Origin: Bacteroidales bacterium
Lineage (GTDB): Bacteria > Bacteroidota > Bacteroidia > Bacteroidales > VadinHA17
Direction of reading: 5' to 3'
Length of the DNA stretch: 64,000 nt
Assembly: GCA_035299385.1 (NCBI GenBank)
Contig: DATGWQ010000268.1
Span: 82,524-146,523, forward strand
Shown: positions 11,241-57,157 of the stretch, piece by piece
Layout: each line of letters starts with the position of its first letter
Numbering within the stretch: the first letter of the stretch is position 1
The notes under the pieces: generated by a model
Databases searched by the model: none
Told to the model about the DNA's origin: nothing
What the model saw: only the letters and a program-made list of their open reading frames with translations
Program-made: the position numbers and the translations under genes

Positions 11241-12581
11241 TTATGAAAGTTTCACGCTGCGTTCACGGATCATTTTACCAACTGTTGCTTTTCCCAGCCT
11301 TATGTAGTCCAGAACCGGTCTTCCGGCAGGACAAACGTAGCTGCACGATCCGCATTCCATGCAGTCTGTTATATGGGCTGTCTCCGCTCTTTCGAACAAA
11401 CCTTTTTCTGAAAGCGAGATTAGAAGATACGGTTCAAGCTTCATGGGGCATGCAAACGAGCATTTTGCACATCTTATGCATGGATCCGGCTGCATGCGGA
11501 GGCTTTCTTTCTCCGGGAATATGACTATACCCGAAGTGCCTTTTACCACGGGCACGTCGGTATTGCTTATTGCCTTTCCCATCATCGGCCCGCCGCTGAT
11601 TATCTTACCGGTGCCTGATGGCAATCCTCCCGCTGCATCTATGAGGCATTTTACAGGGGTCCCGATTCTTACAAGAAAATTTCCGGGAGCTGAAAGTGAT
11701 TTGCCTGTGATAGTCACCACCCTTTCAATTAGGGGCTTATTCTTCTGAACAGCTTCATATACTGCGAATGCTGTCCCGACGTTATGGACAACAGCGCCGA
11801 CATCGACCGGGAGATGGCCTGACGGCACCTCTTTATTAATGAGTGATTTGATAAGCTGTTTTTCGGCGCCCTGCGGGTACTTGACTTTCAATGCATGGAC
11901 GCTGATTCCCTGGAACCCTGCAGCCAGTTCCGACATGCGGGCGATCGCATCAGGTTTGTTGTTCTCGATGCCGATCATGGCTTTTGAGACTTTCAGGGCT
12001 TTCATCAGTATTGTAATCCCAACCAGGATCTCTTCACCTTTCTCCAGCATGAGCCTATGATCCGATGTCAGGTAGGGCTCACATTCAACACCATTGATGA
12101 TCAGTACATCGCAAGTCTTTCCCTGAGGAACGGACAATTTCACATGTGAAGGGAACGTGGCTCCGCCCAATCCAACAATGCCGCATTCGAGACATCTTTT
12201 GATTATTTCTTCTGAAGAAAAAGCGACATCCCTGACCATCTGGCTGCTTCTGTCTATGGATTCCATCCATTCATCACCTTCCGTGTCGATGAAAACGGCA
12301 GTCTGCTTATAGCCGGATGAATCGACGATGGTATCGATCTTATTTACCTTGCCTGAAACTGACGAGTGAATGTTTGTCGAAACAATTCCTTTCGCGGTCG
12401 CAATAACCTGGCCGGCTTTCACCTGGTCGCCTTTGCTAACGGCAACCATTGCAGGAGCACCTATGTGCTGCGAAACAGGGATTGCAACCGATGCTGGAAC
12501 CGGAAGACTTGCAATGCGCCTGTCAGCCGTTAATTTATTTTCCGGCGGATGAATCCCTCCTTTTGAAAATGTCTTTAACAC
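11241..12581 (-). CDS. rnfC: Rnf electron-transport complex subunit C
   Basis: GIVGLGGATFPSHVKL and two 4Fe-4S motifs (CIRCAKCSFACP, CMECGSCSYVCP). Confidence 0.93.
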   Translation of the reverse strand: MLKTFSKGGIHPPENKLTADRRIASLPVPASVAIPVSQHIGAPAMVAVSKGDQVKAGQVIATAKGIVSTNIHSSVSGKVNKIDTIVDSSGYKQTAVFIDTEGDEWMESIDRSSQMVRDVAFSSEEIIKRCLECGIVGLGGATFPSHVKLSVPQGKTCDVLIINGVECEPYLTSDHRLMLEKGEEILVGITILMKALKVSKAMIGIENNKPDAIARMSELAAGFQGISVHALKVKYPQGAEKQLIKSLINKEVPSGHLPVDVGAVVHNVGTAFAVYEAVQKNKPLIERVVTITGKSLSAPGNFLVRIGTPVKCLIDAAGGLPSGTGKIISGGPMMGKAISNTDVPVVKGTSGIVIFPEKESLRMQPDPCIRCAKCSFACPMKLEPYLLISLSEKGLFERAETAHITDCMECGSCSYVCPAGRPVLDYIRLGKATVGKMIRERSVKLS

Positions 12582-26329: not shown

Positions 26330-28234
26330 ATGAATACCGTAATATACAGAGAGATTCTCGAAAAATACTGGGGGTATAAATCCTTCAGGCCACTGCAGGA
26401 AGAAATAATCAGAAGCATCGCAGAGGGTAAGGACACCCTTGCGCTGATGCCAACAGGAGGCGGCAAATCGATTACCTTCCAGGTTCCTGCCATGGCTATG
26501 AATGGTATTTGCCTTGTGATCACACCTCTGATAGCGCTTATGAAGGACCAGGTGGCCAGGCTCAACAGCCTTGGTATAAAAGCGCTTGCCCTTCATTCAG
26601 GCATGTTGCATGAAGAGATCGACAATGCTATTGAAAATGCCATTTTCGGTGACTATAAATTTCTTTATGTATCACCTGAAAGGCTCTGGGCAAGGGATTT
26701 TACCGGAAGGATCGGCCGTTTTGACCTTTCTCTTGTGACTATCGATGAAGCGCACTGCATCTCTCAATGGGGTTACGATTTCAGGCCGTCTTACCTTAAA
26801 ATTGCTGAGATCAGGAATTATATACAGGGAAATGTTCCATTCCTTGCACTTACTGCTTCTGCAACCCGGGAAGCAGCGGATGATATAATGGAAAAACTTG
26901 GCTTCAGGCAGAAGAACCTGCTGAAGACGAGCTTTGAAAGGAGTAATATAACATACCTCGTAAGGAAAATCGAGGACAAGGGTGCATACCTTGCATCGGC
27001 ATTGCAGAAAGCAGGCGGCAGCGGAATTGTTTACGTCAGAAGCAGAAAGAAATGCAGGGAAGTTGCCGAAAACCTGACCGCAGGAGGGATTAGTGCGGAT
27101 TTTTATCATGCGGGGCTTTCAAATGAGCTGCGCGACAGCAGGCAGGTTGCCTGGACAGGCGATAAAACCAGGGTCATCGTCGCCACAAATGCTTTCGGAA
27201 TGGGAATTGACAAGCCTGATGTCAGATTCGTGATACACTGGGATGTGCCTGATTCAATAGAAAATTACTTCCAGGAAAGCGGTAGGGCAGGGCGCGACGG
27301 GAAACCTGCATCTGCCGTGCTTCTGTTTTCACCTGCCGATCGCAGCCGGCTGACCGATTCGCTTAGGAAGAAATTCCCGCCGATCGAGAAGATAAAAGAC
27401 ATATATGAGGCTCTTTGTAACTACCTTCAGATACCTGTTGGGTCAGGGCGTGAAATTGTATACGACTTCAGCATGCGGGAATTCCTTTCAAAGTACCGCT
27501 TGCCGGTGACCGAGACGGTGAACAGCCTCCAATTCCTTCAGAGGGAAGGATATATGGAATTCACGGAGGAAATCAACAATCCATCAAGAGTGCACTTTAT
27601 CGTGGGCCGTGACGACCTGTATAAATTCCAGGTTGAAAATGAAGTTTTCGACGGGTTTATTAAGCTTCTGCTACGGTCATATACCGGGATGTTCAGCGAG
27701 TATGTGCCAATCAATGAAGATGATCTTTCACGGAAATCAGGTTCTGACAGGGATACCATCTACCATTATCTTCTCAAACTTTCTTCATTCAATATAATAA
27801 GGTACATCCCGGGAAAGAAAACTTCACTGGTGATATTCAGGGAGGAACGTCTCGAGAGAAAAGCCCTGCTGATATCACCCGGCAATTACCTGCATGTAAG
27901 GGAACGCTATGAAGAAAGGCTGAGCAGGATGCTCGATTATGCTGAAACAACAGAACGCTGCAGGCAGCAGGCATTGCTTAATTACTTCGGGGAGGAATCG
28001 GGCAGGTGCGGCCACTGTGATTTTTGCCGGAATAGCAAAAATGCCGTAAAGGAAAGTTATGATTCAATAGAAGAGAGGATAATTCATCTTCTTGAGGAAA
28101 GAAAGGCAAGTGCCCGGGAAATTATCAGTGAGCTTCAGCTGGAAGAGGATCATGCGGTAAAGGTGATACGCAGTCTCCTGGACAGTGACAGGATAAGGAT
28201 GGGCACTGACGGAAGATACCGGCTTCCGGACTAA
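26330..28234 (+). CDS. recQ: RecQ-family ATP-dependent DNA helicase (atypical C-terminal layout)
   Basis: FRPLQEEII, PTGGGKS, DEAHCISQWGYDFRP, QESGRAGRDG. The Zn motif CRQQALLNYFGE...CGHCDFC lies about 230 aa after motif VI. I take the ATG at 26330 rather than the TTG at 26279. Confidence 0.85.
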   Translation: MNTVIYREILEKYWGYKSFRPLQEEIIRSIAEGKDTLALMPTGGGKSITFQVPAMAMNGICLVITPLIALMKDQVARLNSLGIKALALHSGMLHEEIDNAIENAIFGDYKFLYVSPERLWARDFTGRIGRFDLSLVTIDEAHCISQWGYDFRPSYLKIAEIRNYIQGNVPFLALTASATREAADDIMEKLGFRQKNLLKTSFERSNITYLVRKIEDKGAYLASALQKAGGSGIVYVRSRKKCREVAENLTAGGISADFYHAGLSNELRDSRQVAWTGDKTRVIVATNAFGMGIDKPDVRFVIHWDVPDSIENYFQESGRAGRDGKPASAVLLFSPADRSRLTDSLRKKFPPIEKIKDIYEALCNYLQIPVGSGREIVYDFSMREFLSKYRLPVTETVNSLQFLQREGYMEFTEEINNPSRVHFIVGRDDLYKFQVENEVFDGFIKLLLRSYTGMFSEYVPINEDDLSRKSGSDRDTIYHYLLKLSSFNIIRYIPGKKTSLVIFREERLERKALLISPGNYLHVRERYEERLSRMLDYAETTERCRQQALLNYFGEESGRCGHCDFCRNSKNAVKESYDSIEERIIHLLEERKASAREIISELQLEEDHAVKVIRSLLDSDRIRMGTDGRYRLPD

Positions 28235-28527
28235 TTAAGGTATTTCACAAGACCTGAATTCTGAAAATTCATAACATTCATCTCAATTGTTTCACGGGAC
28301 TTTTTACCGGTTTCTCCGGGTCCGTGTGTGCAAAACCTGCATCCGCAGTTGTTGCTGAAATACTTGTTACCTTCATGAATCGCATCTCTCAGCGAAATGA
28401 ATTTTCCGAGGAAAATCCTTTTATTCTCAGCCGGTAAAAACGGACAACCGTCCATGTGAACCGAATGCAGTTCATTCAACCCTGGTCTTACTACCATGTA
28501 GAAGCTGCTTAAATGTGCTTTTGACAT
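28231..28527 (-). CDS. small Cys/His-rich protein, putative metal-binding
   Basis: 98 aa. HSVHMDGCPFLP...CGCRFCTHG gives a possible H/C4 metal site, loosely like Ada-type Zn-binding small proteins. Copy 3 of the promoter-like motif precedes it by 44 nt. Confidence 0.6.
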   Translation of the reverse strand: MSKAHLSSFYMVVRPGLNELHSVHMDGCPFLPAENKRIFLGKFISLRDAIHEGNKYFSNNCGCRFCTHGPGETGKKSRETIEMNVMNFQNSGLVKYLN

Positions 28528-28571: not shown

Positions 28572-28603
28572 GTTTAATAGGAAATGGGTCAAAATTGTTA
28601 CCC
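28572..28603 (-). promoter_or_regulatory. ECF-type promoter-like motif, copy 3 (faces the 98-aa gene)
   Basis: The minus strand reads GGGTAACAATTTTGACCCATTTCCTATTAAAC. It is identical to copy 1 at positions 1-9 and 18-32 and differs only in an 8-nt spacer. An AAAACA flank precedes it. Confidence 0.6.
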
Positions 28604-28742
28604 TGTTTTCCTGATTATTTTCAAAAAACCGTATTAATCTTACGATTCCGGGATAATTAATATTTTTTAACATTTATAGTTATCTGTATATCAGGTAATT
28701 AAAAAATATTTTCGTTTTTTTTCATTTTTTATGCCAAAAAAG

Positions 28743-28774
28743 GGGTAACAAAACGAGGGCATTTCCTATTAAAC
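28743..28774 (+). promoter_or_regulatory. ECF-type promoter-like motif, copy 1 (faces the 49-aa ORF and the CHAT gene)
   Basis: GGGTAACAAAACGAGGGCATTTCCTATTAAAC. There is a GTAAC-type -35 and, 16 nt later, CTATTA. It ends 48 nt upstream of the ATG at 28823. Confidence 0.6.
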
Positions 28775-28822: not shown

Positions 28823-28972
28823 ATGAAAACAACTAACAAAAACACCAGGACTGTAAAAACTACCGATCGCTTCTTTACTGAAACATCTGCAGAAGGTATT
28901 CTGAGCATATTAATGGGAGAATGTGATCCCACCGAACCGATCATTATTATACCACCGGCCCCAAAGATTTGA
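28823..28972 (+). CDS. unannotated 49-aa ORF (MKTTNKNTRTVKTTDRFFTETSAEGILSILMGECDPTEPIIIIPPAPKI); alternatively a non-coding ~260-nt RNA
   Basis: ATG-initiated ORF below the 60-aa track cutoff. It lies between motif copy 1 and a textbook intrinsic terminator (29007-29041). Coding status is unproven. Confidence 0.45.
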   Translation: MKTTNKNTRTVKTTDRFFTETSAEGILSILMGECDPTEPIIIIPPAPKI

Positions 28973-29006
28973 TTTCTGCTATTTGTTTACTCATCTGAAG
29001 AAAGGT

Positions 29007-29041
29007 AAGGTGCATTCACGGGTTGAATGCACCTTTTTTTT
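29007..29041 (+). terminator. intrinsic terminator after the 49-aa ORF, overlapping the CHAT gene start
   Basis: AAGGTGCATTC (29007-29017), loop ACGGGTT, GAATGCACCTT (29025-29035), then a run of T to 29041. This is a perfect 11-bp stem plus a U-tract. Confidence 0.85.
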
Positions 29042-31812
29042 ATTTTTACTGCAAAACGGACGTTTTGAGAATTTGCCTTATTGTGGTTTTTCTTTTGTTT
29101 CTTCTTTCTGCGAACGGATATGCTTCAGGTTTGCCACCGGAAAAAGACTTCAGCTATTATATGAACTCTTTTGTTGAAAATTATTACCATGGTGATTTTG
29201 TCAAATGCGAGGAAGCGATGCTCTCCGCCTCAGCTCTGGACCTGCCGGAATACTATAAGGCATCTATTTATAACAATCTGGGAGTAACTTATTATTTGCT
29301 TGGAAATTATGAAGATGCACTGAAAGCTTATTCCAGGATTGAAACCATGAACCTTACACCTGATGAGATCAATTCATTAACACCCCCCGGACTTGTCAAC
29401 AGGGCTCTTATCTATGGGAAGAGGAAGATGTATGACAAGGCAGTGTCCTATTATGAAAGAGCCATAAGAATACTGGAGCAGACAGCAAAGAGTGATGCAT
29501 CTTTGTTTGAAAGACTGGCATTAGCCTACCATAACATGGGGACCGTTTATTCTGAAAGAGGTGAATTCAGAACTGCCCTGGTGCATTTTAATGCAAGTCT
29601 CTCTATAATGGAGAAGCATAAAATTCAAAATAAATCACTTCCGCTATCGACAATTGCCAAATGCTATGCAAAGCTTAATGACCGCCCTCTTGCGGAAGCT
29701 TATTTCAAAAGATGCCTTTCAACGGCAACAATAGAGCATGGGACCGGGTATTACAACCTTTATGAATTCCATGTTTTATATGCCGATTTTCTGAGTTCTG
29801 AGAAAAAGTATGCAGAGGCCCTGGCTATATACCGCAGGGTAATGCTCCATTTCCTGGAGACCTACGGTTCAAAGAATGCCAATACATCCGGTGGCTTCAG
29901 GAACCTTGGTGAATTGAAATTAAAAACCGGCGAATACGATTCATCCCTTTACTTCTACCAGAGATCCCTTATTTCGATAGTCGGTAATTTCAATGATGAA
30001 AATATTGAAACTAACCCCGGCATCGATTCATCGTTCTTAAATGTCAGGCTTCTTGAAAATCTGAAAGGTAAATCGAAGGTTCTCGAAGCGCTCGCAGCGA
30101 CACGGAGATCACCCGATGAGCGGATCAGAACATTGAAAATGAGCCTCTCCACACTGGAACTGGCAATGGATCTTACTGATATCATGCGGAACAACTTCCC
30201 GACAGAAGAAAGTAAAATGTATATCTCTGAAATCGAGAAAGAAACCTATATATCCGGCATAAGGATCGCCTCTGTGCTGTATACCCTGACCGGAAGTGAT
30301 TCTCTTCTTTCACGGATGTACGGGTTTGTCCAAAGATCAAAAGCTGCTGTTCTGCGAGATGAGATCATCAGCAACAAGCTGGTTTATTCTGCTACGCTTC
30401 CGGATTCGGTAATAGAAAAGGAACACAGGCTGGCGTCAAACATTGCCGGTTACAGGATGCTTATATACAATGAGGAGAACAGCGAGCGACCGGACAAAAG
30501 CAGGATAAACCTCTGGAAAGATGAAGCTTTCGAGATGAGCCGTCAGAAGGAAATTCTTGACAGGGTAATTACAGATGCAATTCCCGGTTATCCGGATCTC
30601 CCGGCAAAAACGACACCTCTTCCCCTGAAGGAGATAATGGGCAATCTTGAAAGGGATGAAATAATAATAGATTACTCGGTTTCAGGTTCATACAATGACG
30701 GAAAGAGGGATTTATTCATTTTTCTAATCGACAGGAGGCACTTGAAGTTTTACAGGTCTGAGACAGACTCGCTTTTTATTAAAAATGCACTGGTGCTCAG
30801 GAATACTTCAGATCCGTCGATCCGTTCGGGCAGGAAAGAATCCGGAAGCTATCTGTCTGCCCTTTTTTACATGTATAATACTCTTATACAACCAGTTGGC
30901 AAGGAATTGAAAAATAAAAGACTGATTATTATACCCGATGAAGAAATAAGCTGGCTTCCTTTCGAGGCATTCCTCACAAAGGAACCGGAAAGTAACAGTG
31001 TTGATTTTGACGGACTTCATTTTTTGATCTATGATCATTCGATCTCGCATGCATACTCATCCTCGCTGATACCGGTCCCATCGAGAGCGCAAAAGGAGCC
31101 GGTATATGCATTTTCCCCTTTTTATGAAAGCCAACAGCATAGTCCGCTCAGGGGCAGCATTAAAGAAATTGAATCGGTAAACAGCATCATGGGGGGGAAA
31201 GTATTCACAGGCGCCGCAGCGAGCCGTAACAAATTTATCAACTACATGAAGGAAAGCGTGATTTTTCACCTGGCCATGCATTCTCTTTATGACAGCACCA
31301 ATTCGCTCTATTCATACCTTTTGTTTGACAGCAACGGAAGCGATTCATCAAAATTATACAATTACGAGATCAGCCTCGGAAGGATATCAACGCCCATGAT
31401 TGTCCTGAGCTCATGTAATTCAGGAGCCGGAACGCTGAACAGGAGCGAGGGCCTGATGAGTATTGCCAGAAGCTTCATCCTCGCGGGGGCTTCCTCTGTA
31501 GTAAGGACTGCCTGGGAGGTAAATGATGATTCCGGTTCCGAAATTGTCACCCGGTTCTATTATTATCTTTCAAGAGGTTACAGCAAGGACAGGGCGCTAA
31601 GGCTGGCTAAAATTGATTTTATCGAAAAAGCACCACCTTCATTCCGTGATCCATATTACTGGGCAGCTTACGAAGTACTGGGCGACAATTCACCTGTAAG
31701 GCACGGCAAAGGCAAAATTGTAACATTTGTTACAATTCCGTTATTATTGATGATTGCAGGAGTTTATCTTTATTTAAGACGCCGCAGAATTTCAGCTGCC
31801 CGTTTGCTGTAG
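29023..31812 (+). CDS. membrane-anchored TPR-CHAT (caspase-like) protease
   Basis: N-terminal hydrophobic signal LRICLIVVFLLFLLSANGYASG and multiple TPR-like repeats. The C-terminal CHAT domain has His (HLAMH, 31267-31281) and Cys (LSSCNSG, Cys codon 31414-31416). A C-terminal TM helix is followed by RRRR. The only possible starts that keep the signal peptide are TTG codons (29023 or 29065). Confidence 0.85.
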   Translation: MNAPFFYFYCKTDVLRICLIVVFLLFLLSANGYASGLPPEKDFSYYMNSFVENYYHGDFVKCEEAMLSASALDLPEYYKASIYNNLGVTYYLLGNYEDALKAYSRIETMNLTPDEINSLTPPGLVNRALIYGKRKMYDKAVSYYERAIRILEQTAKSDASLFERLALAYHNMGTVYSERGEFRTALVHFNASLSIMEKHKIQNKSLPLSTIAKCYAKLNDRPLAEAYFKRCLSTATIEHGTGYYNLYEFHVLYADFLSSEKKYAEALAIYRRVMLHFLETYGSKNANTSGGFRNLGELKLKTGEYDSSLYFYQRSLISIVGNFNDENIETNPGIDSSFLNVRLLENLKGKSKVLEALAATRRSPDERIRTLKMSLSTLELAMDLTDIMRNNFPTEESKMYISEIEKETYISGIRIASVLYTLTGSDSLLSRMYGFVQRSKAAVLRDEIISNKLVYSATLPDSVIEKEHRLASNIAGYRMLIYNEENSERPDKSRINLWKDEAFEMSRQKEILDRVITDAIPGYPDLPAKTTPLPLKEIMGNLERDEIIIDYSVSGSYNDGKRDLFIFLIDRRHLKFYRSETDSLFIKNALVLRNTSDPSIRSGRKESGSYLSALFYMYNTLIQPVGKELKNKRLIIIPDEEISWLPFEAFLTKEPESNSVDFDGLHFLIYDHSISHAYSSSLIPVPSRAQKEPVYAFSPFYESQQHSPLRGSIKEIESVNSIMGGKVFTGAAASRNKFINYMKESVIFHLAMHSLYDSTNSLYSYLLFDSNGSDSSKLYNYEISLGRISTPMIVLSSCNSGAGTLNRSEGLMSIARSFILAGASSVVRTAWEVNDDSGSEIVTRFYYYLSRGYSKDRALRLAKIDFIEKAPPSFRDPYYWAAYEVLGDNSPVRHGKGKIVTFVTIPLLLMIAGVYLYLRRRRISAARLL

Positions 31813-32669
31813 AATCCCTCAGTGCCGGCAAGAGCCCCGAAGTACTTTGCAGACTCAGGCTTATTCCCTTTTTTCAGCCAGGCAAGACCGAGATACCACC
31901 TGGTTTCCTTAAAATATGCATCCTGCTGTTGGGCGGCCTGTTCAAGGGCTGAAATTGCCTGGTCGGTATTATTGTTTTCGAGCTCTGACAATCCCAGATA
32001 AAATAACGATGCACTGTTCTCATTCAATGCCTGCCGGAATGAAGCAGCCGCTTCAGGGTACATGGAGGCCTTATAATAATCAATGGCCTGCTCAAAATTT
32101 GCCTGGACTGAACTATTCCCTCTTGTAACGGACGTCATAGCAGGGAATGATTCATAGTATTTGCTGAATAACCGTTCAGGGGATGATGATGGAGCAAGAG
32201 CAGCGAAAAAGATCATTATGCCGATCAATGCTGCGGCCGCCATGTAAGCAACGCGACGCAAAGGAACAATTTTCGGCCGGGATGTTTTTTCCCCGACAGG
32301 TGCTGCATTCAATGAATCAGATATGAAGCTTCTTCGTTCTTCATCTTCAGGTGACAGCTTTGCCTCTGACTGTTTTTTCTGATGCCACTCATTTACCCAT
32401 TCAACAGACAACAGATCGATGTCGCTTTGCCTGAATTCGATCTTTATATCCTTAAAATCTTCAGGATTGAATGTGTTGCGCGACAGGGAATCCTGTACAA
32501 ATTTCCTGTCGCTTTCAGATTTCCTGCTTTCCTGATGGTTTTTTGCAATTGCGGAGCTGACATGAGCCCTGGTTTCCTCAAGAAAAGGATCAGAGCATAT
32601 CTCTTCAAAGTCGGCGAGAGCGCGCATATGCACTTTTATCATGTCATTATTTAAATTTCCGGATTGCAT
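31770..32669 (-). CDS. anti-sigma-factor-like single-pass membrane protein with periplasmic TPR domain
   Basis: Lies directly downstream of the ECF sigma gene. It has a ~145-aa cytoplasmic N-domain, a TM helix VAYMAAAALIGIMIFFAALAP, and a C-terminal TPR-like region (YYKASMYPEAAASFRQAL..., LGLAWLKKGN). An alternative start is at 32642. Confidence 0.6.
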   Translation of the reverse strand: MQSGNLNNDMIKVHMRALADFEEICSDPFLEETRAHVSSAIAKNHQESRKSESDRKFVQDSLSRNTFNPEDFKDIKIEFRQSDIDLLSVEWVNEWHQKKQSEAKLSPEDEERRSFISDSLNAAPVGEKTSRPKIVPLRRVAYMAAAALIGIMIFFAALAPSSSPERLFSKYYESFPAMTSVTRGNSSVQANFEQAIDYYKASMYPEAAASFRQALNENSASLFYLGLSELENNNTDQAISALEQAAQQQDAYFKETRWYLGLAWLKKGNKPESAKYFGALAGTEGFYSKRAAEILRRLK

Positions 32670-32706: not shown

Positions 32707-33300
32707 TCACTTTACAACAGCTTTTACTACATATTCGGATTTTACTATATTAATGTATCCGGGATGCTCTTTTACCCTGCGGGCAAAATCATTTTGCGCT
32801 TCCCATTTCTTTTTTCTTACATATCCGTATGTATACCCAAGCCTTTCTGCAATTTCCTGGGCAGATACATCCTGCCAGTAGAGATTAAGGATGTTCCTGC
32901 TTGCTTCATCGAGGGTTTCATAAACCTCTTTGAAAATATCATCGTAAAGCTTGCGGTCGATTGCTTCGGAAATGTCTTTCTCAACTGCAGGTTCATTATT
33001 TTTTGCACGGTAATTTGATGCCGCCTTTCTTTTGTCAAGAACGGTTTTCCAGAGGTTTTCGCAGACACAGTATAAATATGTCTTGAATTTGCACTGTAGG
33101 ACAAAGTCAGGATCATCTATCTTTTCAAGCATTATTACGAGCCCGTCCTGGAAAACATCCTGTGCATCTTCAGATGAACCACCATTCTGAAATACCATCA
33201 TCCTGATGAGAGGCAGGTACCTTTCGGAAAGATACCTGACAACGTAGCTTTGACGTTTCCTGAGACAATCAATTATCTCTATGTCGCTGAATTCTCTCAA
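32707..33300 (-). CDS. ECF-type sigma-70 family RNA polymerase sigma factor
   Basis: 197 aa. Region-2-like DAQDVFQDGLVIMLEKI and region-4 HTH SAQEIAERLGYTYGYVRKKKWEAQ. Confidence 0.85.
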   Translation of the reverse strand: MREFSDIEIIDCLRKRQSYVVRYLSERYLPLIRMMVFQNGGSSEDAQDVFQDGLVIMLEKIDDPDFVLQCKFKTYLYCVCENLWKTVLDKRKAASNYRAKNNEPAVEKDISEAIDRKLYDDIFKEVYETLDEASRNILNLYWQDVSAQEIAERLGYTYGYVRKKKWEAQNDFARRVKEHPGYINIVKSEYVVKAVVK

Positions 33301-33375: not shown

Positions 33376-33411
33376 AAGATGAAAAATTTTTTAAAAATTT
33401 TCTCAAAAACA

Positions 33412-33443
33412 GGGTAACAAAACAGGGGCATTTCCTATTAAGC
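33412..33443 (+). promoter_or_regulatory. ECF-type promoter-like motif, copy 2 (faces the PAS histidine kinase)
   Basis: GGGTAACAAAACAGGGGCATTTCCTATTAAGC, with 29 of 32 positions identical to copy 1. It ends 109 nt upstream of the kinase ATG at 33553. Confidence 0.6.
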
Positions 33444-33501
33444 AATAAAAATGAACCTGGAACTATGAGTGATTTCAGGTTAAGTTGTTGTTTCACAATG
33501 G

Positions 33502-33545
33502 TCTGTCGTTTTTACGGGGGAAACGACGGAATTATGTTTTATTTA
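33502..33545 (+). terminator. terminator/attenuator-like hairpin in the kinase leader
   Basis: TCTGTCGTTT (33502-33511) pairs with AAACGACGGA (33521-33530). That gives 10 bp including one G-U pair, with loop TTACGGGGG. ATTATGTTTTATTT follows. Confidence 0.4.
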
Positions 33546-33552
33546 AAAGGGG

Positions 33553-34761
33553 ATGAAGATGCCTGTTGAAAAGAATGTACGCGAAGATCTGATGAGTAAA
33601 CCTGATCCGTCGGGAACGGTTCAGAAAAAAATTGCACTCGTATCAGGAATTACCGATCGCTTATACCGTCTTATAGAGAAGGACGAGGGTGTTCCTTTCC
33701 ACCTGGTCTATGACAATGAGTCTGGAAGCGGACACTATTTATTTATTGGAGAAGGGATCAGGGATATTACCGGGTTCGAACCGGGTAGTTTCACGGAAAG
33801 GACACTAAATGACATTACCAGGGAAGTTGTGCCCTTATCGGAAAATGTGCCGGCCGATAATTGCATGCTGAGAAATTTGATTCTGCAGGGCGAAATACAG
33901 GAGTACAGGATTGAAAGGTGCATAGTGTCCAGGTCGGGAGAACGAAAATGGATAAGGGAAACTGCCGTCCAGCATGCAGAATCAGGTTTTGTGACAGGAC
34001 TGATCGGCATCTATCATGATATCACGGAGAAAAAAAAATACAGCATCAAGCTCGAAAATGCAATCAGAGAAGCCTCGGAATCAGAACGTTTGAAGAATAA
34101 TTTCCTGCAGAACATATCACATGAAGTCAGGACTCCGCTGAATGCAATTGTGGGATTTTCAGCCATGCTTAGCGAACCGGAGCTGGATTATGGAAAAAAG
34201 GTGGAATTTGCCAGGATGATAAACACGAGCACAGATGAGCTTCTTAACATAATGGAGAATATTATCGAAATTTCACGAATAGATGCAGGATCAGAAGAGA
34301 TCACTGTAAAAGATGTGAAACCCTCTGAGCTTCTGAATAAAATATATAAGACCTTTTATAATAAGGCGCTTGAAAATAATATATCGCTTGAATGCTCCAT
34401 CCCCCCGGATTCTGAAATTTCTATCCCGACAGACGGGTACAAGCTGTTCCAGGTGATCTATAACCTGACAGGCAATGCCATTAAATTCACACAAGAAGGA
34501 AAAGTTGAATTCGGCTATAATATCCTTGGGAACAATATCGAATTCTATGTGTCTGATACCGGCATAGGAATCTCAGACCACGACAAGCCCAAAATATTCA
34601 ACAAATTTTACCAGGCAGACTCTGGTTCGACAAGGAGATACGCCGGAACAGGGCTCGGATTAACAATCGCCAAAGCCTATGCGGAAATGCTTGGAGGCTC
34701 ATTAAGCTTCCAATCCTCAGAGGGTGAAGGCTCCGTATTCAGGTTTACCCTTCCGTTTTAA
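33553..34761 (+). CDS. cytoplasmic PAS-domain sensor histidine kinase (orphan)
   Basis: No TM segment. PAS-like region, H-box SHEVRTPLNAIVGFSAML, HATPase N/G boxes (NLTGNAIKFT, DTGIGI, GTGLGLTIAK). No response regulator gene is adjacent. Confidence 0.88.
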   Translation: MKMPVEKNVREDLMSKPDPSGTVQKKIALVSGITDRLYRLIEKDEGVPFHLVYDNESGSGHYLFIGEGIRDITGFEPGSFTERTLNDITREVVPLSENVPADNCMLRNLILQGEIQEYRIERCIVSRSGERKWIRETAVQHAESGFVTGLIGIYHDITEKKKYSIKLENAIREASESERLKNNFLQNISHEVRTPLNAIVGFSAMLSEPELDYGKKVEFARMINTSTDELLNIMENIIEISRIDAGSEEITVKDVKPSELLNKIYKTFYNKALENNISLECSIPPDSEISIPTDGYKLFQVIYNLTGNAIKFTQEGKVEFGYNILGNNIEFYVSDTGIGISDHDKPKIFNKFYQADSGSTRRYAGTGLGLTIAKAYAEMLGGSLSFQSSEGEGSVFRFTLPF

Positions 34762-54944: not shown

Positions 54945-54983
54945 TTGCGTCCTTTGCGTCTTCAGTTTTGCGTACTTTGCGTT
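54945..54983 (+). repeat. TTTGCG-word element, copy 2
   Basis: TTGCGTCCTTTGCGTCTTCAGTTTTGCGTACTTTGCGTT. It aligns with copy 1 over about 36 nt, with a 3-nt insertion and a few substitutions. Confidence 0.8.
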
Positions 54984-55021
54984 TTGTTTTTATTTTTATT
55001 CTTCCTAAGAATCATAACCCT

Positions 55022-57157
55022 ATGAAACGACTCAACCTCTTTCTTTACATCCTTCTCGCAGCTGCTCTGTTTTCCTGCACCACTGCTCCCAAGCCGCCAG
55101 TAGCAGAGAAAAATCCACATGATGTCTTCGACAAACGCATAGACAATTACTATTGGATGCGCCTCACAGACGATCAGAAAAATGCCGAAACACCCGATGA
55201 GCAGACGGCAAAGGTACTTGCCTATCTGAACGCCGAAAACGAATACACCAAAACTGTTCTCAAACATACCGAAGGTCTTCAGAAAACCTTATATGATGAG
55301 ATCATTGGCAGGATGAAGAAAGATGATGAATCAGTTCCTTATCTGAAAGACGGTTTATATTACTATACAAAGTTTTCAGAAAAGAGCGAATATCCTGTTT
55401 ATTACAGGAAGAAAGGCTCGCTCGATGCTGCTGAACAGGTTATCCTTGATGTCAACAAGCTTGCGGAAGGCAAAAGCTATTGTTCGGTGAACGGAGTTTC
55501 CGTAAGCCGCGACGGCAAGCTGCTGGCTTACGGGGTCGATTATGAGAGCAGGAGAAGATACACATTGAATTTTGTGGATATTGAGTCCGGCAATACGCTG
55601 CCTGAGAAAATCTCAAATACCACGGGGCAATGCATCTGGGCAGCAGATAACAAGACCTGCTTCTACATCACAAAGGACAAAGAGACATTAAGGGAGGACA
55701 AGGTTTACAGGCATGTGCTGGGAACGTCGCCCGACAAGGATCAGATGGTATTCTTTGAAGCTGACGAAACTTTCAGCGTCTCACTGCAGGAGACAAAAAG
55801 CCGCAAGTATATTGTCATCAACTCTGACCAGACGCTTACAACCGAATGCCGTTACATTGATGCTTCAAAACCTGAAGGTGATTTCATAGTTTTTGAGCCA
55901 AGGAAAGTCAATCACGAATACAGCATAAACCATCTTGGAAATGAGTTTTTCATCAGGACGAATTCAGACAGCGCTTCAAATTTCAGGCTAATGGAAGCCC
56001 CGGAGAACAAGACTTCATTTGAAAACTGGAAGGAAGTGATTCCAAACAGGAAAGATGTCTTGCTTGAAGGATTCGAGCTGTTTGACAAATTCCTGGTTGT
56101 CCAGGAAAGGACCAAAGCCCTTACGAACATGCGTGTTATCAATGTGGCGGACAAAAGTGAACATTTCCTGGATTTCGGCGAGGAGGCATATTCTGCTAAC
56201 ATCAATGTGAATCCGAATTCAAATACGGACATTTTACGTTACAGCTATTCATCGCTGACTACTCCCGGTTCAATCATAGACTATAACATGGTTACGAAGG
56301 AGAAGGAGCTTATGAAGGAAGACGTTGTGCTTGGAGGGTTTGACAAGAACAATTATGAAACAAAAAGAATATGGGCGAAAGTAACTGACGGAACGATGGT
56401 GCCGGTCTCACTGGTTTACAGGAAAGGATTCGTTCAGGATGGAAAGAGCCCTCTTCTTCTTTATGCATACGGCTCTTACGGAGCTTCGACCGATGCAGCC
56501 TTCAGGTCAAATATCATCAGCCTTCTCGACAGGGGTTTCGTGTATGCAATTGCCCATATCCGGGGAGGAAGCGAAATGGGACGGCAATGGTATGAGAATG
56601 GCAGGCTGCTGAAGAAGATAAATACATTCACCGATTTCAACGACTGTGCTCAGTTCCTTGTAAACGAAAAATTTACCGCTCCCGAAAATCTTTTCGCAAT
56701 GGGTGGAAGCGCCGGCGGACTGCTGATGGGCGCAATACTGAATATGAGACCCGATCTTTACAGGGGCGTAATCGCAGCAGTTCCGTTTGTAGATGTTGTC
56801 ACGACCATGCTCGACGAAAGCATCCCGCTTACCACCTTTGAATGGGATGAATGGGGCGATCCGCGGAAGAAAACTTATTACGATTACATGCTTTCCTATT
56901 CCCCATATGACCAGGTGAAAGCACAGGCCTATCCGAATATACTTGTCACAACAGGATTATGGGATTCGCAGGTACAGTACTGGGAACCGTCAAAATGGGT
57001 TGCAAAGCTGCGTGATATGAAGACCGACAAGAATGTTCTCGTAATGGACTGCAACATGACTGCCGGTCACGGAGGCGCGTCGGGACGGTTCGAACGCAAC
57101 AGGATCACATCACTTGAATACGCGTTTATCCTGGATCTTGCGGGAGTAAAGCAATGA
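55022..57157 (+). CDS. ptrB: S9A prolyl-oligopeptidase family peptidase (oligopeptidase B-like), lipoprotein
   Basis: Start at the ATG at 55022 (MKRLNLFLYILLAAALFSC). Beta-propeller region, nucleophile elbow GGSAGGLLMG, GLWDSQV and AGHGG regions. Confidence 0.85.
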   Translation: MKRLNLFLYILLAAALFSCTTAPKPPVAEKNPHDVFDKRIDNYYWMRLTDDQKNAETPDEQTAKVLAYLNAENEYTKTVLKHTEGLQKTLYDEIIGRMKKDDESVPYLKDGLYYYTKFSEKSEYPVYYRKKGSLDAAEQVILDVNKLAEGKSYCSVNGVSVSRDGKLLAYGVDYESRRRYTLNFVDIESGNTLPEKISNTTGQCIWAADNKTCFYITKDKETLREDKVYRHVLGTSPDKDQMVFFEADETFSVSLQETKSRKYIVINSDQTLTTECRYIDASKPEGDFIVFEPRKVNHEYSINHLGNEFFIRTNSDSASNFRLMEAPENKTSFENWKEVIPNRKDVLLEGFELFDKFLVVQERTKALTNMRVINVADKSEHFLDFGEEAYSANINVNPNSNTDILRYSYSSLTTPGSIIDYNMVTKEKELMKEDVVLGGFDKNNYETKRIWAKVTDGTMVPVSLVYRKGFVQDGKSPLLLYAYGSYGASTDAAFRSNIISLLDRGFVYAIAHIRGGSEMGRQWYENGRLLKKINTFTDFNDCAQFLVNEKFTAPENLFAMGGSAGGLLMGAILNMRPDLYRGVIAAVPFVDVVTTMLDESIPLTTFEWDEWGDPRKKTYYDYMLSYSPYDQVKAQAYPNILVTTGLWDSQVQYWEPSKWVAKLRDMKTDKNVLVMDCNMTAGHGGASGRFERNRITSLEYAFILDLAGVKQ

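Follow-up and report, generated by a model that had tools for sequence, protein, structure and literature searches.

The 64,000-nucleotide stretch of Bacteroidales DNA analysed here (contig DATGWQ010000268.1, hereafter the window) carries at positions 28823–28972 (+ strand) an ATG-initiated open reading frame (ORF) of 49 codons, which follows a promoter-like motif and is followed in turn by an intrinsic terminator and by the gene for a protein that combines tetratricopeptide repeats (TPRs) with a caspase-like (CHAT) protease domain. An earlier note on this DNA had described the ORF, and re-translation agrees with it exactly, giving a product of 49 aa, MKTTNKNTRTVKTTDRFFTETSAEGILSILMGECDPTEPIIIIPPAPKI. 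In itself an ORF of this size is at the level of chance, as 12 kb of the AT-rich window DNA holds 117 ORFs of at least 30 aa, so its significance comes from conservation only. Comparison of homologous loci shows 28823–28972 to be a genuine protein-coding gene of a conserved family in uncultured Bacteroidales-type bacteria, the window copy being a divergent member of an unnamed family of double-glycine-leader peptides.

A search with the window peptide alone returned a sole match, a 98%-identical twin. The family was instead found via peptides from three loci with homologous CHAT genes, followed by profile building. These three loci come from Bacteroidales/Bacteroidetes metagenome-assembled genomes whose encoded CHAT proteins are 43–47% identical to that of the window, and all three showed the motif and then an ORF of ~53 aa in the same order, two of them with the terminator as well. 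A word-indexed profile search with four peptides recovered 41 unnamed small proteins, a metagenome scan with a tighter alignment subset added 55 further loci, and an exhaustive HMMER search gave 132 clusters at 50% identity, nearly all of 46–65 aa; the set comprises 215 distinct peptides in total. The family has no name, and no Pfam, NCBIfam or Rfam model covers it. Two candidates were rejected as members: P0101 (699 aa, six profile matches) is a low-complexity repeat protein, and P0159 is apparently two unrelated double-glycine-leader peptides read as one ORF. The peptide gene is present in a single copy per locus; in one locus (L067) a second, partial peptide gene lies ~930 nt upstream of the first.

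At the equivalent position an unbroken ORF with an ATG start is found in around 65 homologous loci, representing 61 distinct ORFs. Across these, the third codon position is the most variable (codon-position entropy 0.84, 0.73 and 1.30), and the ratio of non-synonymous to synonymous substitution rates (dN/dS) has a median of 0.305 over 1362 pairwise comparisons, every one of them below 1. Both alternative frames are interrupted by stops in 61 of 61 ORFs. The earlier note had asked whether homologous loci lack the ORF or carry frameshifts in it, and in every locus examined the ORF was intact and under purifying selection. As it was never absent or frameshifted, the note's alternative of a pure small RNA (sRNA) is unlikely, and it is further disfavoured by the coding signature itself, by the lack of any Rfam match for the transcript, and by the predicted 265-nt transcript, which shows no structure beyond the terminator in excess of shuffled sequences (z = -0.9).

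The family peptides are ~50–60 aa long and consist of a basic N-terminus, an amphipathic leader of the double-glycine (GG) type and a short core, with the consensus MKKxDKSxxxxRNFDxLISKLSENEILxxxAMxxVRGG-DGDGxGGEPIIIIPPKxx. An [RKH]GG sequence is found in 196 of the 215 distinct peptides, and most of the remainder have xGG. Counting back from the second glycine in these 196 peptides, G-1 and G-2 are present in 100%, V/I-4 in 99%, M/L-7 in 98% and L-12 in 99%, whilst position -3 is R, K or H throughout. Position -8 is less constrained, being Glu in only ~30% of the family peptides and Ala in 44%. C39 peptidases of peptidase-containing ABC transporters (PCATs) recognise the pattern L(-12)xxxE(-8)L(-7), V-4 and GG (PMC6363468), and the -4/-7/-12 spacing together with GG matches what such a peptidase would be predicted to recognise. 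After the GG site the core has a median length of 17 aa, with an acidic and Gly-rich start followed by a run of I/V (145/196) and by PP (147/196); some cores end in seven to eight prolines and some members are without PP.

The window peptide departs from this pattern through an in-frame gap of six codons (18 nt) that removes the xxV-R-G-G site, leaving ILSILMGECDP with no GG and with the segment from -3 to -8 missing. Among the 215 peptides, only the window copy and its near-identical relative P0001 (98%), whose gene occurs in two further samples (L068 and L069), are intact and yet lack GG. The relatives that are 62–69% identical in the anti-sigma-like protein described below are on contigs that end before the peptide gene.

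Upstream of the peptide gene, which is the first cistron behind it, lies the first of three copies of a promoter-like motif (copy A, 28742–28774, + strand, GGGGTAACAAAACGAGGGCATTTCCTATTAAAC), with a -35-like GTAACA (28745–28750), a 16-nt spacer and a -10-like TATTAA(AC) (28767–28774), from which transcription is predicted to start at ~28780. The distance of 48 nt from the end of this copy to the ATG is as the earlier note had given it. Copy B (28572–28604, - strand) is divergent from copy A, 140 nt away, before the gene for a 98-aa Cys/His-rich protein, and copy C (33411–33443, + strand) faces away from an extracytoplasmic function (ECF)-type sigma factor gene, toward a histidine kinase gene. 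The general form, GTAACA-N16-17-(T)ATWAA(AC), has an ECF-like ‘AAC’ -35 box and sigma-70-family spacing. A position weight matrix (PWM) built from the peptide promoters matches three times in the 64-kb window, where none would be expected, and across loci it matches three recurrent places per locus, before the peptide gene, before the Cys/His protein gene and before the kinase gene or its substitute. Essentially every locus with sufficient upstream sequence has the motif 57–66 nt ahead of the ATG of the peptide gene; in the window the distance is 78 nt. We infer that the neighbouring ECF sigma factor reads all three copies. The sigma operon of the window is itself preceded by a -7 box of the sigma-A type, the Bacteroidota housekeeping type (TAATTTTG, 33352–33345, - strand), and the sigma factor apparently does not control its own gene through the motif, an uncommon situation among ECF sigmas. 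In two loci that have no kinase (L010, motif at 12110; L011, at 10637) the third motif copy is kept beside the sigma gene and faces other genes, which in L011 are a gene for a 233-aa protein without a Pfam match and then a TonB-like gene.

Downstream of the peptide gene, the hairpin and T-run noted earlier at 29007–29041 (+ strand) are present: stem 29007–29018, loop 29019–29023, stem 29024–29035 and eight T residues at 29034–29041. The hairpin, AAGGTGCATTCA-CGGGT-TGAATGCACCTT (29007–29035), has 12 pairs, including two A-U pairs, with a 10-bp core, and a folding energy of ~-18.6 kcal/mol. Taking as a terminator any hairpin of -8 kcal/mol or lower that abuts a T-run within 150 nt past the stop codon, we find one behind the peptide gene in 54 of the 57 distinct loci, compared with 9% in a control set of 1026 windows, and the layout of precursor gene, terminator and enzyme gene that had been proposed for the window is thus conserved across loci. 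The T-run begins 41–71 nt past the stop codon (median 56) and the hairpin ~18–45 nt past it (~20–35 nt for the majority of loci and 34 nt for the window), at which distance a terminating ribosome would not mask the hairpin. The stem sequences are unrelated between clades (GGTGCATTCA, AGAGCATTCTT, AAAGGGGCT, GAGCATCCG and others), so what is conserved is the structure and not the sequence.

Between the stop codon and the hairpin lies a 34-nt block of the 3′ untranslated region (3′ UTR; 28973–29006, + strand, TTTCTGCTATTTGTTTACTCATCTGAAGAAAGGT) that is almost invariant in the window, L001, L003 and L012 despite their diverged ORFs, with no conservation outside this sub-clade. None of the rival explanations weighed below accounts for this block. 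Complements of 11 nt to it occur at 33591, in the histidine kinase mRNA, and at 33167. As a candidate sRNA seed the block was rejected, as RNAduplex gave z-scores of -0.2 in L001 and +0.5 in L012, both of which share the block, and the pairing is not conserved.

The reading frame of the CHAT gene is open from 29023, and the in-frame start codons TTG 29065, GTG 29083 and TTG 29095 follow. The earlier statement that translation can begin only at 29023 or 29065 was therefore too strict, and the statement that the terminator sits on the CHAT start is not confirmed: the start indicated by homology, TTG 29065, is 23 nt past the T-run, and overlap with the loop is confined to the maximal ORF from 29023. 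As noted, one has to go past the signal peptide to reach the next in-frame ATG. Homologues typically show a start codon followed by K/R and a hydrophobic signal sequence, and the window reads M-R-I-C-L-I-V-V-F-L-L-F-L-L-S-A-N-G-Y-A from TTG 29065; start codons in 43 loci are TTG in 20, GTG in 4 and ATG in 19. The closest relative with sequence at this point, L072, keeps TTG-AGA-ATT and has no downstream GTG, whilst in the near-identical L068 and L069 gene callers picked the position equivalent to GTG 29083. From this comparison TTG 29065, past the terminator, is most likely the start, and with either TTG 29065 or GTG 29083 as the putative start the terminator is upstream of the CHAT start and not on it.

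The CHAT start lies 30 nt from the onset of the T-run in the window, and 23 nt past its last T, the shortest gap among 41 loci and one that contains no TAnnTTTG box. In the window, as in L072, a separate promoter would not fit into the 23-nt gap, so read-through of the terminator is the only visible source of CHAT mRNA here, and to that extent the proposed dependence of CHAT expression on read-through is plausible. It cannot be extended to all loci, since in L001, L003 and L012 a sigma-A -7 box (TAnnTTTG) lies in the gap, 26–27 nt ahead of the CHAT start. That CHAT commonly has a sigma-A promoter of its own was rejected, the box being present in 5 of 41 gaps, which equals the shuffle expectation (4.2 ± 2.0), absent from the window and conserved in position only in those three loci. 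A conserved element TTTTTTCTGAAATTGTTACC (TTTTCTGAAATTGTTACC) lies 29–40 nt before the CHAT start in ~19 loci (including L013, L014, L018, L022, L023, L028, L038, L040, L043, L046, L048, L062 and L065) and has no counterpart in the window. Within it lies the -35 box in reverse complement (GGTAACAA), and a promoter, a sigma decoy or an operator are candidate roles for it. An antisense ECF-type promoter in TTTTCTGAAATTGTTACC (reverse complement GGTAACAA) was considered and is not supported: visual inspection of L013 and L014 showed no conservation of its -10 part, and the PWM finds no match of at least 14 bits in the element.

The TPR-CHAT protein (29065–31812, + strand) has 915 aa from TTG 29065, or 915–929 aa depending on the start, with GTG 29083 as the alternative. 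It consists of a signal peptide, TPRs, a CHAT domain with its His in the 31264–31284 region and its Cys in the 31402–31425 region, and a C-terminal transmembrane (TM) helix (31717–31776) followed by an RRRR tail. The His-Cys dyad (HLAMH, SxCNSG) is conserved in 25 of 25 full-length homologues. The signal peptide and the C-terminal helix with RRRR, read by the positive-inside rule, place the TPRs and the CHAT domain on the periplasmic side, and the protein is predicted to be a periplasmic protease anchored in the inner membrane. Its cytoplasmic tail (31777–31809) reads RRRR-I/F-x-S-D/E-R-S-L in all homologues (RRRRIFSDRSL), which suggests a cytoplasmic contact.

On the opposite strand, a gene at 31770–32669 (-) encodes an anti-sigma-like single-pass TPR membrane protein of 299 aa, with a conserved cytoplasmic N-terminal domain of ~140 aa, one TM helix (32252–32193), a linker predicted to be periplasmic and a three-TPR domain. 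Its position, strand and single-TM topology fit an anti-sigma partner of the ECF sigma factor. The linker is disordered (low confidence) in the AlphaFold model and carries A(V/I)S(P/S)VTR(G/S), with the T-R invariant in 21 of 21 sequences; in the window it reads AMTSVTRG (32118–32141, - strand; V-T-R-G at 32129–32118), ~20 aa past the TM helix. The three-TPR fold is confidently modelled and its nearest structures are the TPRs of YbgF, Sti1 (with an Hsp90 peptide), CHIP (with a peptide) and a type III secretion system chaperone (with a peptide), most of which are peptide binders. Beside it lies the sigma factor gene (32707–33300, - strand; 197 aa), which matches PF04542, PF08281 and TIGR02937 (E 4e-17) and has regions 2 and 4 only, as is the case for ECF sigma factors.

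These genes form a recurrent module in which the gene order is the same across loci. The TPR-CHAT gene is downstream of the peptide gene in 41 of 41 loci, the ECF sigma gene and the gene for the anti-sigma-like TPR membrane protein are each present in 18 of the 18 loci with enough sequence, the ~100-aa Cys/His protein is encoded upstream and divergently in 45 of 47, and the kinase is found in the majority of loci (6/8 where the downstream sequence reaches 6 kb or more). The ingredients, namely a GG leader, an ECF/anti-sigma pair, a CHAT protease and an attenuating terminator, are all known, but the combination is new, and the literature searched contained no account of the peptide family, nor of an ECF sigma factor, a TPR partner and a TPR-CHAT protein split up in this way.

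The closest parallel is DdvS/DdvA of Myxococcus xanthus, an ECF sigma factor and a transmembrane anti-sigma factor with a periplasmic TPR-CHAT, in which DdvA has been proposed to act as its own site-1 protease and has been called the only characterised anti-sigma factor with TPR-CHAT; DdvA-like proteins were found only in Myxococcota and one Comamonas species (PMC11506125). Both systems place an ECF sigma factor beside a single-pass membrane partner and a periplasm-facing TPR-CHAT with a His-Cys dyad, and the proposed logic is the same, with site-1 cleavage by CHAT of a flexible linker near the membrane followed by intramembrane cleavage. In the Bacteroidota module, however, the TPR-CHAT, instead of being fused to the anti-sigma factor, stands alone as a protein that has a signal peptide and a C-terminal anchor of its own; the partner has a three-TPR domain of small size, and no zinc anti-sigma domain can be recognised in it; and the regulon comprises the peptide, the Cys/His protein and the kinase, instead of CBASS and CRISPR genes. 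The Type III-E CRISPR Craspase likewise couples a TPR-CHAT protease to an ECF-type sigma factor by cleavage of a sigma-binding partner, as we propose here, with Csx29 (TPR-CHAT) cleaving Csx30, which binds the sigma factor RpoE (PMC9825189). It differs in being cytoplasmic, RNA-guided and bound to Cas7-11, with no membrane anchors and no small peptide gene, whilst the present module has no CRISPR context.

The peptide itself resembles the GG leaders processed by PCATs and by ABC-transporter maturation and secretion (AMS) proteins (ComC, class II bacteriocins, Bacteroidota TIGR04149; PMC6363468) in that its leader is of the same length and has GG at -2/-1 and hydrophobic residues at -4/-7/-12, its N-terminus is basic and its core is short. 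It differs in having no C39-ABC exporter nearby, no leader model above threshold, a conserved acidic and Pro-rich core and an invariant basic residue at -3, and in that the window member is without GG. The order of precursor gene, stem-loop and enzyme genes recalls mibA with MibX/MibW, and PspX/PspW, where the ECF sigma/anti-sigma pair senses an exported peptide or its effect and amplifies expression, which is here only proposed; the MibX/MibW pair auto-induces the lantibiotic microbisporicin and a putative attenuator follows the precursor gene (PMC4973701). Those are actinobacterial clusters with Lan enzymes, transporters and immunity genes, whereas the only enzyme here is a protease, and mibA is driven by MibR with the ECF factor driving other operons, whereas the ECF-type motif of the present module stands before the peptide gene itself. 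The analogy with lantibiotic operons and those of other peptides that ribosomes synthesise and that are post-translationally modified (RiPPs) drawn in the earlier note thus stands for the gene order but fails for the enzymes, the module having no modifying enzyme and no C39 exporter. Peptide pheromones of the RRNPP type in Firmicutes, for example Rgg/SHP with DIIIIVGG, are re-imported and bound by cytoplasmic TPR-type transcription-factor receptors. They share with the present family a short, Ile-rich peptide that begins with Asp, and TPR-repeat proteins are the likely partners here as well; they differ in that the TPR domains here would be periplasmic and the output would be proteolysis of the anti-sigma-like protein.

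Taken together, the module suggests an undescribed peptide-controlled signalling circuit in uncultured Bacteroidales. The explanation that we favour, tentatively and at somewhat less than an even chance in its full form, is that of an ECF-driven exported peptide that tunes a periplasmic CHAT/anti-sigma pair. The TPR membrane protein would hold the sigma factor until the periplasmic CHAT, as site-1 protease, cuts its linker at the candidate site V-T-R|G/S and sigma release begins. The sigma factor would then transcribe the peptide gene strongly, with most transcripts ending at the terminator as a ~260-nt peptide mRNA. In the window a minority of read-through transcripts would provide little CHAT mRNA, damped further by the TTG start, so that with both terminator and TTG start the peptide would far exceed the protease. 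Typical members would be exported, probably through a C39-type ABC exporter whose gene lies elsewhere, and then be cleaved at R-G-G, or else be cut by CHAT itself; the core or the R-G-G region could then engage the TPR domains or active site of CHAT, the TPR anti-sigma-like protein, or both. The peptide would thereby tune linker cleavage, by feed-forward if it is a ligand or by feedback if it competes as a pseudo-substrate, and the most likely function, as we see it, is that the exported peptide would serve the periplasmic CHAT/anti-sigma pair as a feedback ligand or as a substrate in competition. The window copy, without the R-G-G segment, may act uncleaved or may be a decaying variant. That the peptide could be a substrate, cofactor or decoy of CHAT had been put forward in the earlier note, and the idea becomes sharper because the GG leader carries an invariant basic residue and a similar, likewise invariant V-T-R-G/S occurs in the anti-sigma-like linker. 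The short resemblance between AMSCVRGG of a family peptide and AMTSVTRG of the linker is a lead, not evidence, and could reflect a shared protease site or chance. Extended to cell-cell or self-signalling, in which periplasmic TPRs would read the ~17-aa core and gate cutting by CHAT at V-T-R|G, the proposal becomes unlikely; if true, it would amount to quorum-type auto-induction, or to negative feedback by substrate mimicry, through regulated proteolysis, a kind of circuit without a described example in Bacteroidota or any Gram-negative bacterium.

Several observations weigh against an exported peptide under sigma control. No exporter or C39 peptidase was found in ~20 module contexts or among the annotated ORFs of the 64-kb window, and the peptide has no Sec signal, so that its access to the periplasm is assumed. 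None of the GG-leader hidden Markov models reached threshold (TIGR04149 E 0.025, PF10439 E 0.15, TIGR03893 E ~0.05, these matches coming from 1–3 of 39 members), and we accordingly term the family GG-leader-like and do not assign it to any named family. The AMSCVRGG/AMTSVTRG likeness is short and shows no locus-by-locus covariation. Because R-G-G is absent from the window peptide and from P0001, the steps that depend on cleavage cannot apply to this locus. On the transcriptional side, the assignment of the motif to the sigma factor draws on adjacency and the AAC-type -35 box only, the PWM has no match before the sigma operon in any locus scanned, and the gap element of ~19 loci together with the three -7 boxes means that CHAT may have its own promoter outside the window lineage. 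As for the anti-sigma-like protein, no ASD, zf-HC2 or other anti-sigma domain matched its cytoplasmic domain, and residues 1–160 of the AlphaFold2 model have a predicted local distance difference test (pLDDT) score below 50, from an alignment of only 6 sequences.

How far these points favour other readings depends on the reading. If the peptide were a cytoplasmic small regulator that is never exported, with the leader serving as an amphipathic helix whose binding partner would be the sigma factor, the cytoplasmic part of the anti-sigma-like protein, the CHAT tail or the co-regulated kinase, the absence of both exporter and signal peptide from the module contexts would be expected, as would the persistence of the GG-less window variant with intact promoter and terminator in three samples, and the CHAT tail and the anti-sigma-like cytoplasmic domain are conserved; a mere helix, however, needs neither 100% G-1/G-2 nor the exact C39 spacing of -4/-7/-12, and what is conserved behind GG is rich in proline and not helical, so we hold this to be distinctly unlikely. 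A secreted antimicrobial or bacteriocin-like peptide, with CHAT as an extracytoplasmic maturation or immunity protease and auto-induction by the ECF/anti-sigma pair, would fit the GG-type leader, the sub-threshold likeness only to RiPP/bacteriocin leader models, the precursor-terminator-enzyme gene order and the precedent of ECF auto-induction for microbisporicin and planosporicin (PMC4973701). We nevertheless consider it very unlikely: post-translational modification enzymes, an exporter and immunity-type ABC genes are all absent from ~20 contexts, there is one copy per locus, and the core of ~17 aa is acidic and highly conserved (EPIIIIPP), whereas bacteriocin cores are usually cationic and diversifying. 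Specific to the window copy, and compatible with any of the other readings, is a decaying or neo-functionalised remnant whose processing route has been inactivated. The gap is in frame, and of 215 peptides only the window copy and P0001 (L068/L069) are intact but GG-less; yet no damage is seen in the ORF, promoter, terminator or CHAT dyad or in any partner gene, EPIIIIPP is kept, and the variant recurs in three independent samples, which leaves a remnant a serious candidate but a rather unlikely one.

Two further readings give the RNA or its translation the leading part. ECF-dependent sRNAs are common, and a sigma-dependent sRNA or dual-function RNA acting by pairing, with the ORF incidental or a second function, would suit a short transcript with its own promoter and terminator, the 3′ UTR block (28973–29006) almost invariant in four loci with diverged ORFs, and the 11-nt complement in the kinase mRNA at 33591. 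Against it stand the strong coding signature (dN/dS 0.3, 61/61 ORFs intact), the empty Rfam search and lack of excess structure, a 3′ UTR block unconserved outside the sub-clade and a kinase pairing that is not kept in L001 and L012, and it is highly improbable. The least probable of these readings is a cis-acting leader peptide without a function of its own, in which ribosome pausing at a C-terminal PP or poly-Pro stretch would control the terminator and hence CHAT. PP occurs in 147/196 cores, some of which end in seven to eight prolines, the order of ORF, terminator and gene is that of an attenuator, and arrest peptides upstream of envelope genes are known (PMC12992588). Conservation, however, spans the whole peptide and not its end alone, PP is absent from some members, the hairpin begins ~18–45 nt past the stop codon and so outside the footprint of a terminating ribosome, and no antiterminator pairing was found, the transcript folding no better than its shuffles (z = -0.9).

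If the model of an exported peptide acting on the CHAT/anti-sigma pair holds, the question of what activates CHAT proteases in anti-sigma signalling becomes testable, with a candidate ligand or substrate encoded next door; for DdvA the activating signal is still unknown (PMC11506125). A peptide that is both exported and sensed would be a rare case of peptide signalling in Bacteroidota, whilst a peptide that is only a cytoplasmic accessory factor would make for a useful annotation and an ordinary finding. The small-protein family of 132 clusters is newly recognised, its members having been annotated at most as ‘hypothetical protein’ and falling below common length cut-offs, and with it comes a compact conserved module with a clear motif that comprises the sigma factor, TPR partner, TPR-CHAT protein, GG-leader peptide, Cys/His protein and kinase.

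The 98-aa Cys/His-rich protein (28231–28527, - strand) has the signature YYVAxRPQTNExHxVHxxGCPFLP...GCxxC. Its family has no Pfam, NCBIfam, PADLOC or PDB relative, and the spacing of its His and Cys residues suggests metal binding. The kinase gene (33553–34761, + strand) encodes a soluble PAS-HisKA-HATPase histidine kinase, the third gene class under the motif, behind a leader of ~105 nt. This leader (33448–33552 in the window, 100–160 nt across loci) contains a recurrent hairpin with loops rich in GGGGAA/GGAA (in the window, L001, L004, L009, L012, L041, L049 and L061), the stems of which differ between loci (CUGUCGUUU...AAACGACGG in the window, CUUUGCCGAUU...AAUUGGCAGAG in L009). In the window the hairpin is followed by a U-rich stretch, and it may be a second attenuator or a protein-binding element.

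As to the wider surroundings, a reading of the module as anti-phage defence was rejected, PADLOC returning nothing relevant. In L006 (1–9700) and L010 (600–5700) the module adjoins genes of mobile or defence type (integrase, PRTRC/ThiF-E2, OLD-family nuclease, BubE, multi-ubiquitin and M78 peptidase), and in other loci sulfatase or housekeeping genes. In L054 the ORF past the peptide gene is not CHAT and may be an insertion. In the window, a prolyl oligopeptidase (S9) gene (54968–57157, + strand) lies 26 kb from the gene for the proline-rich peptide, with no link established between the two.

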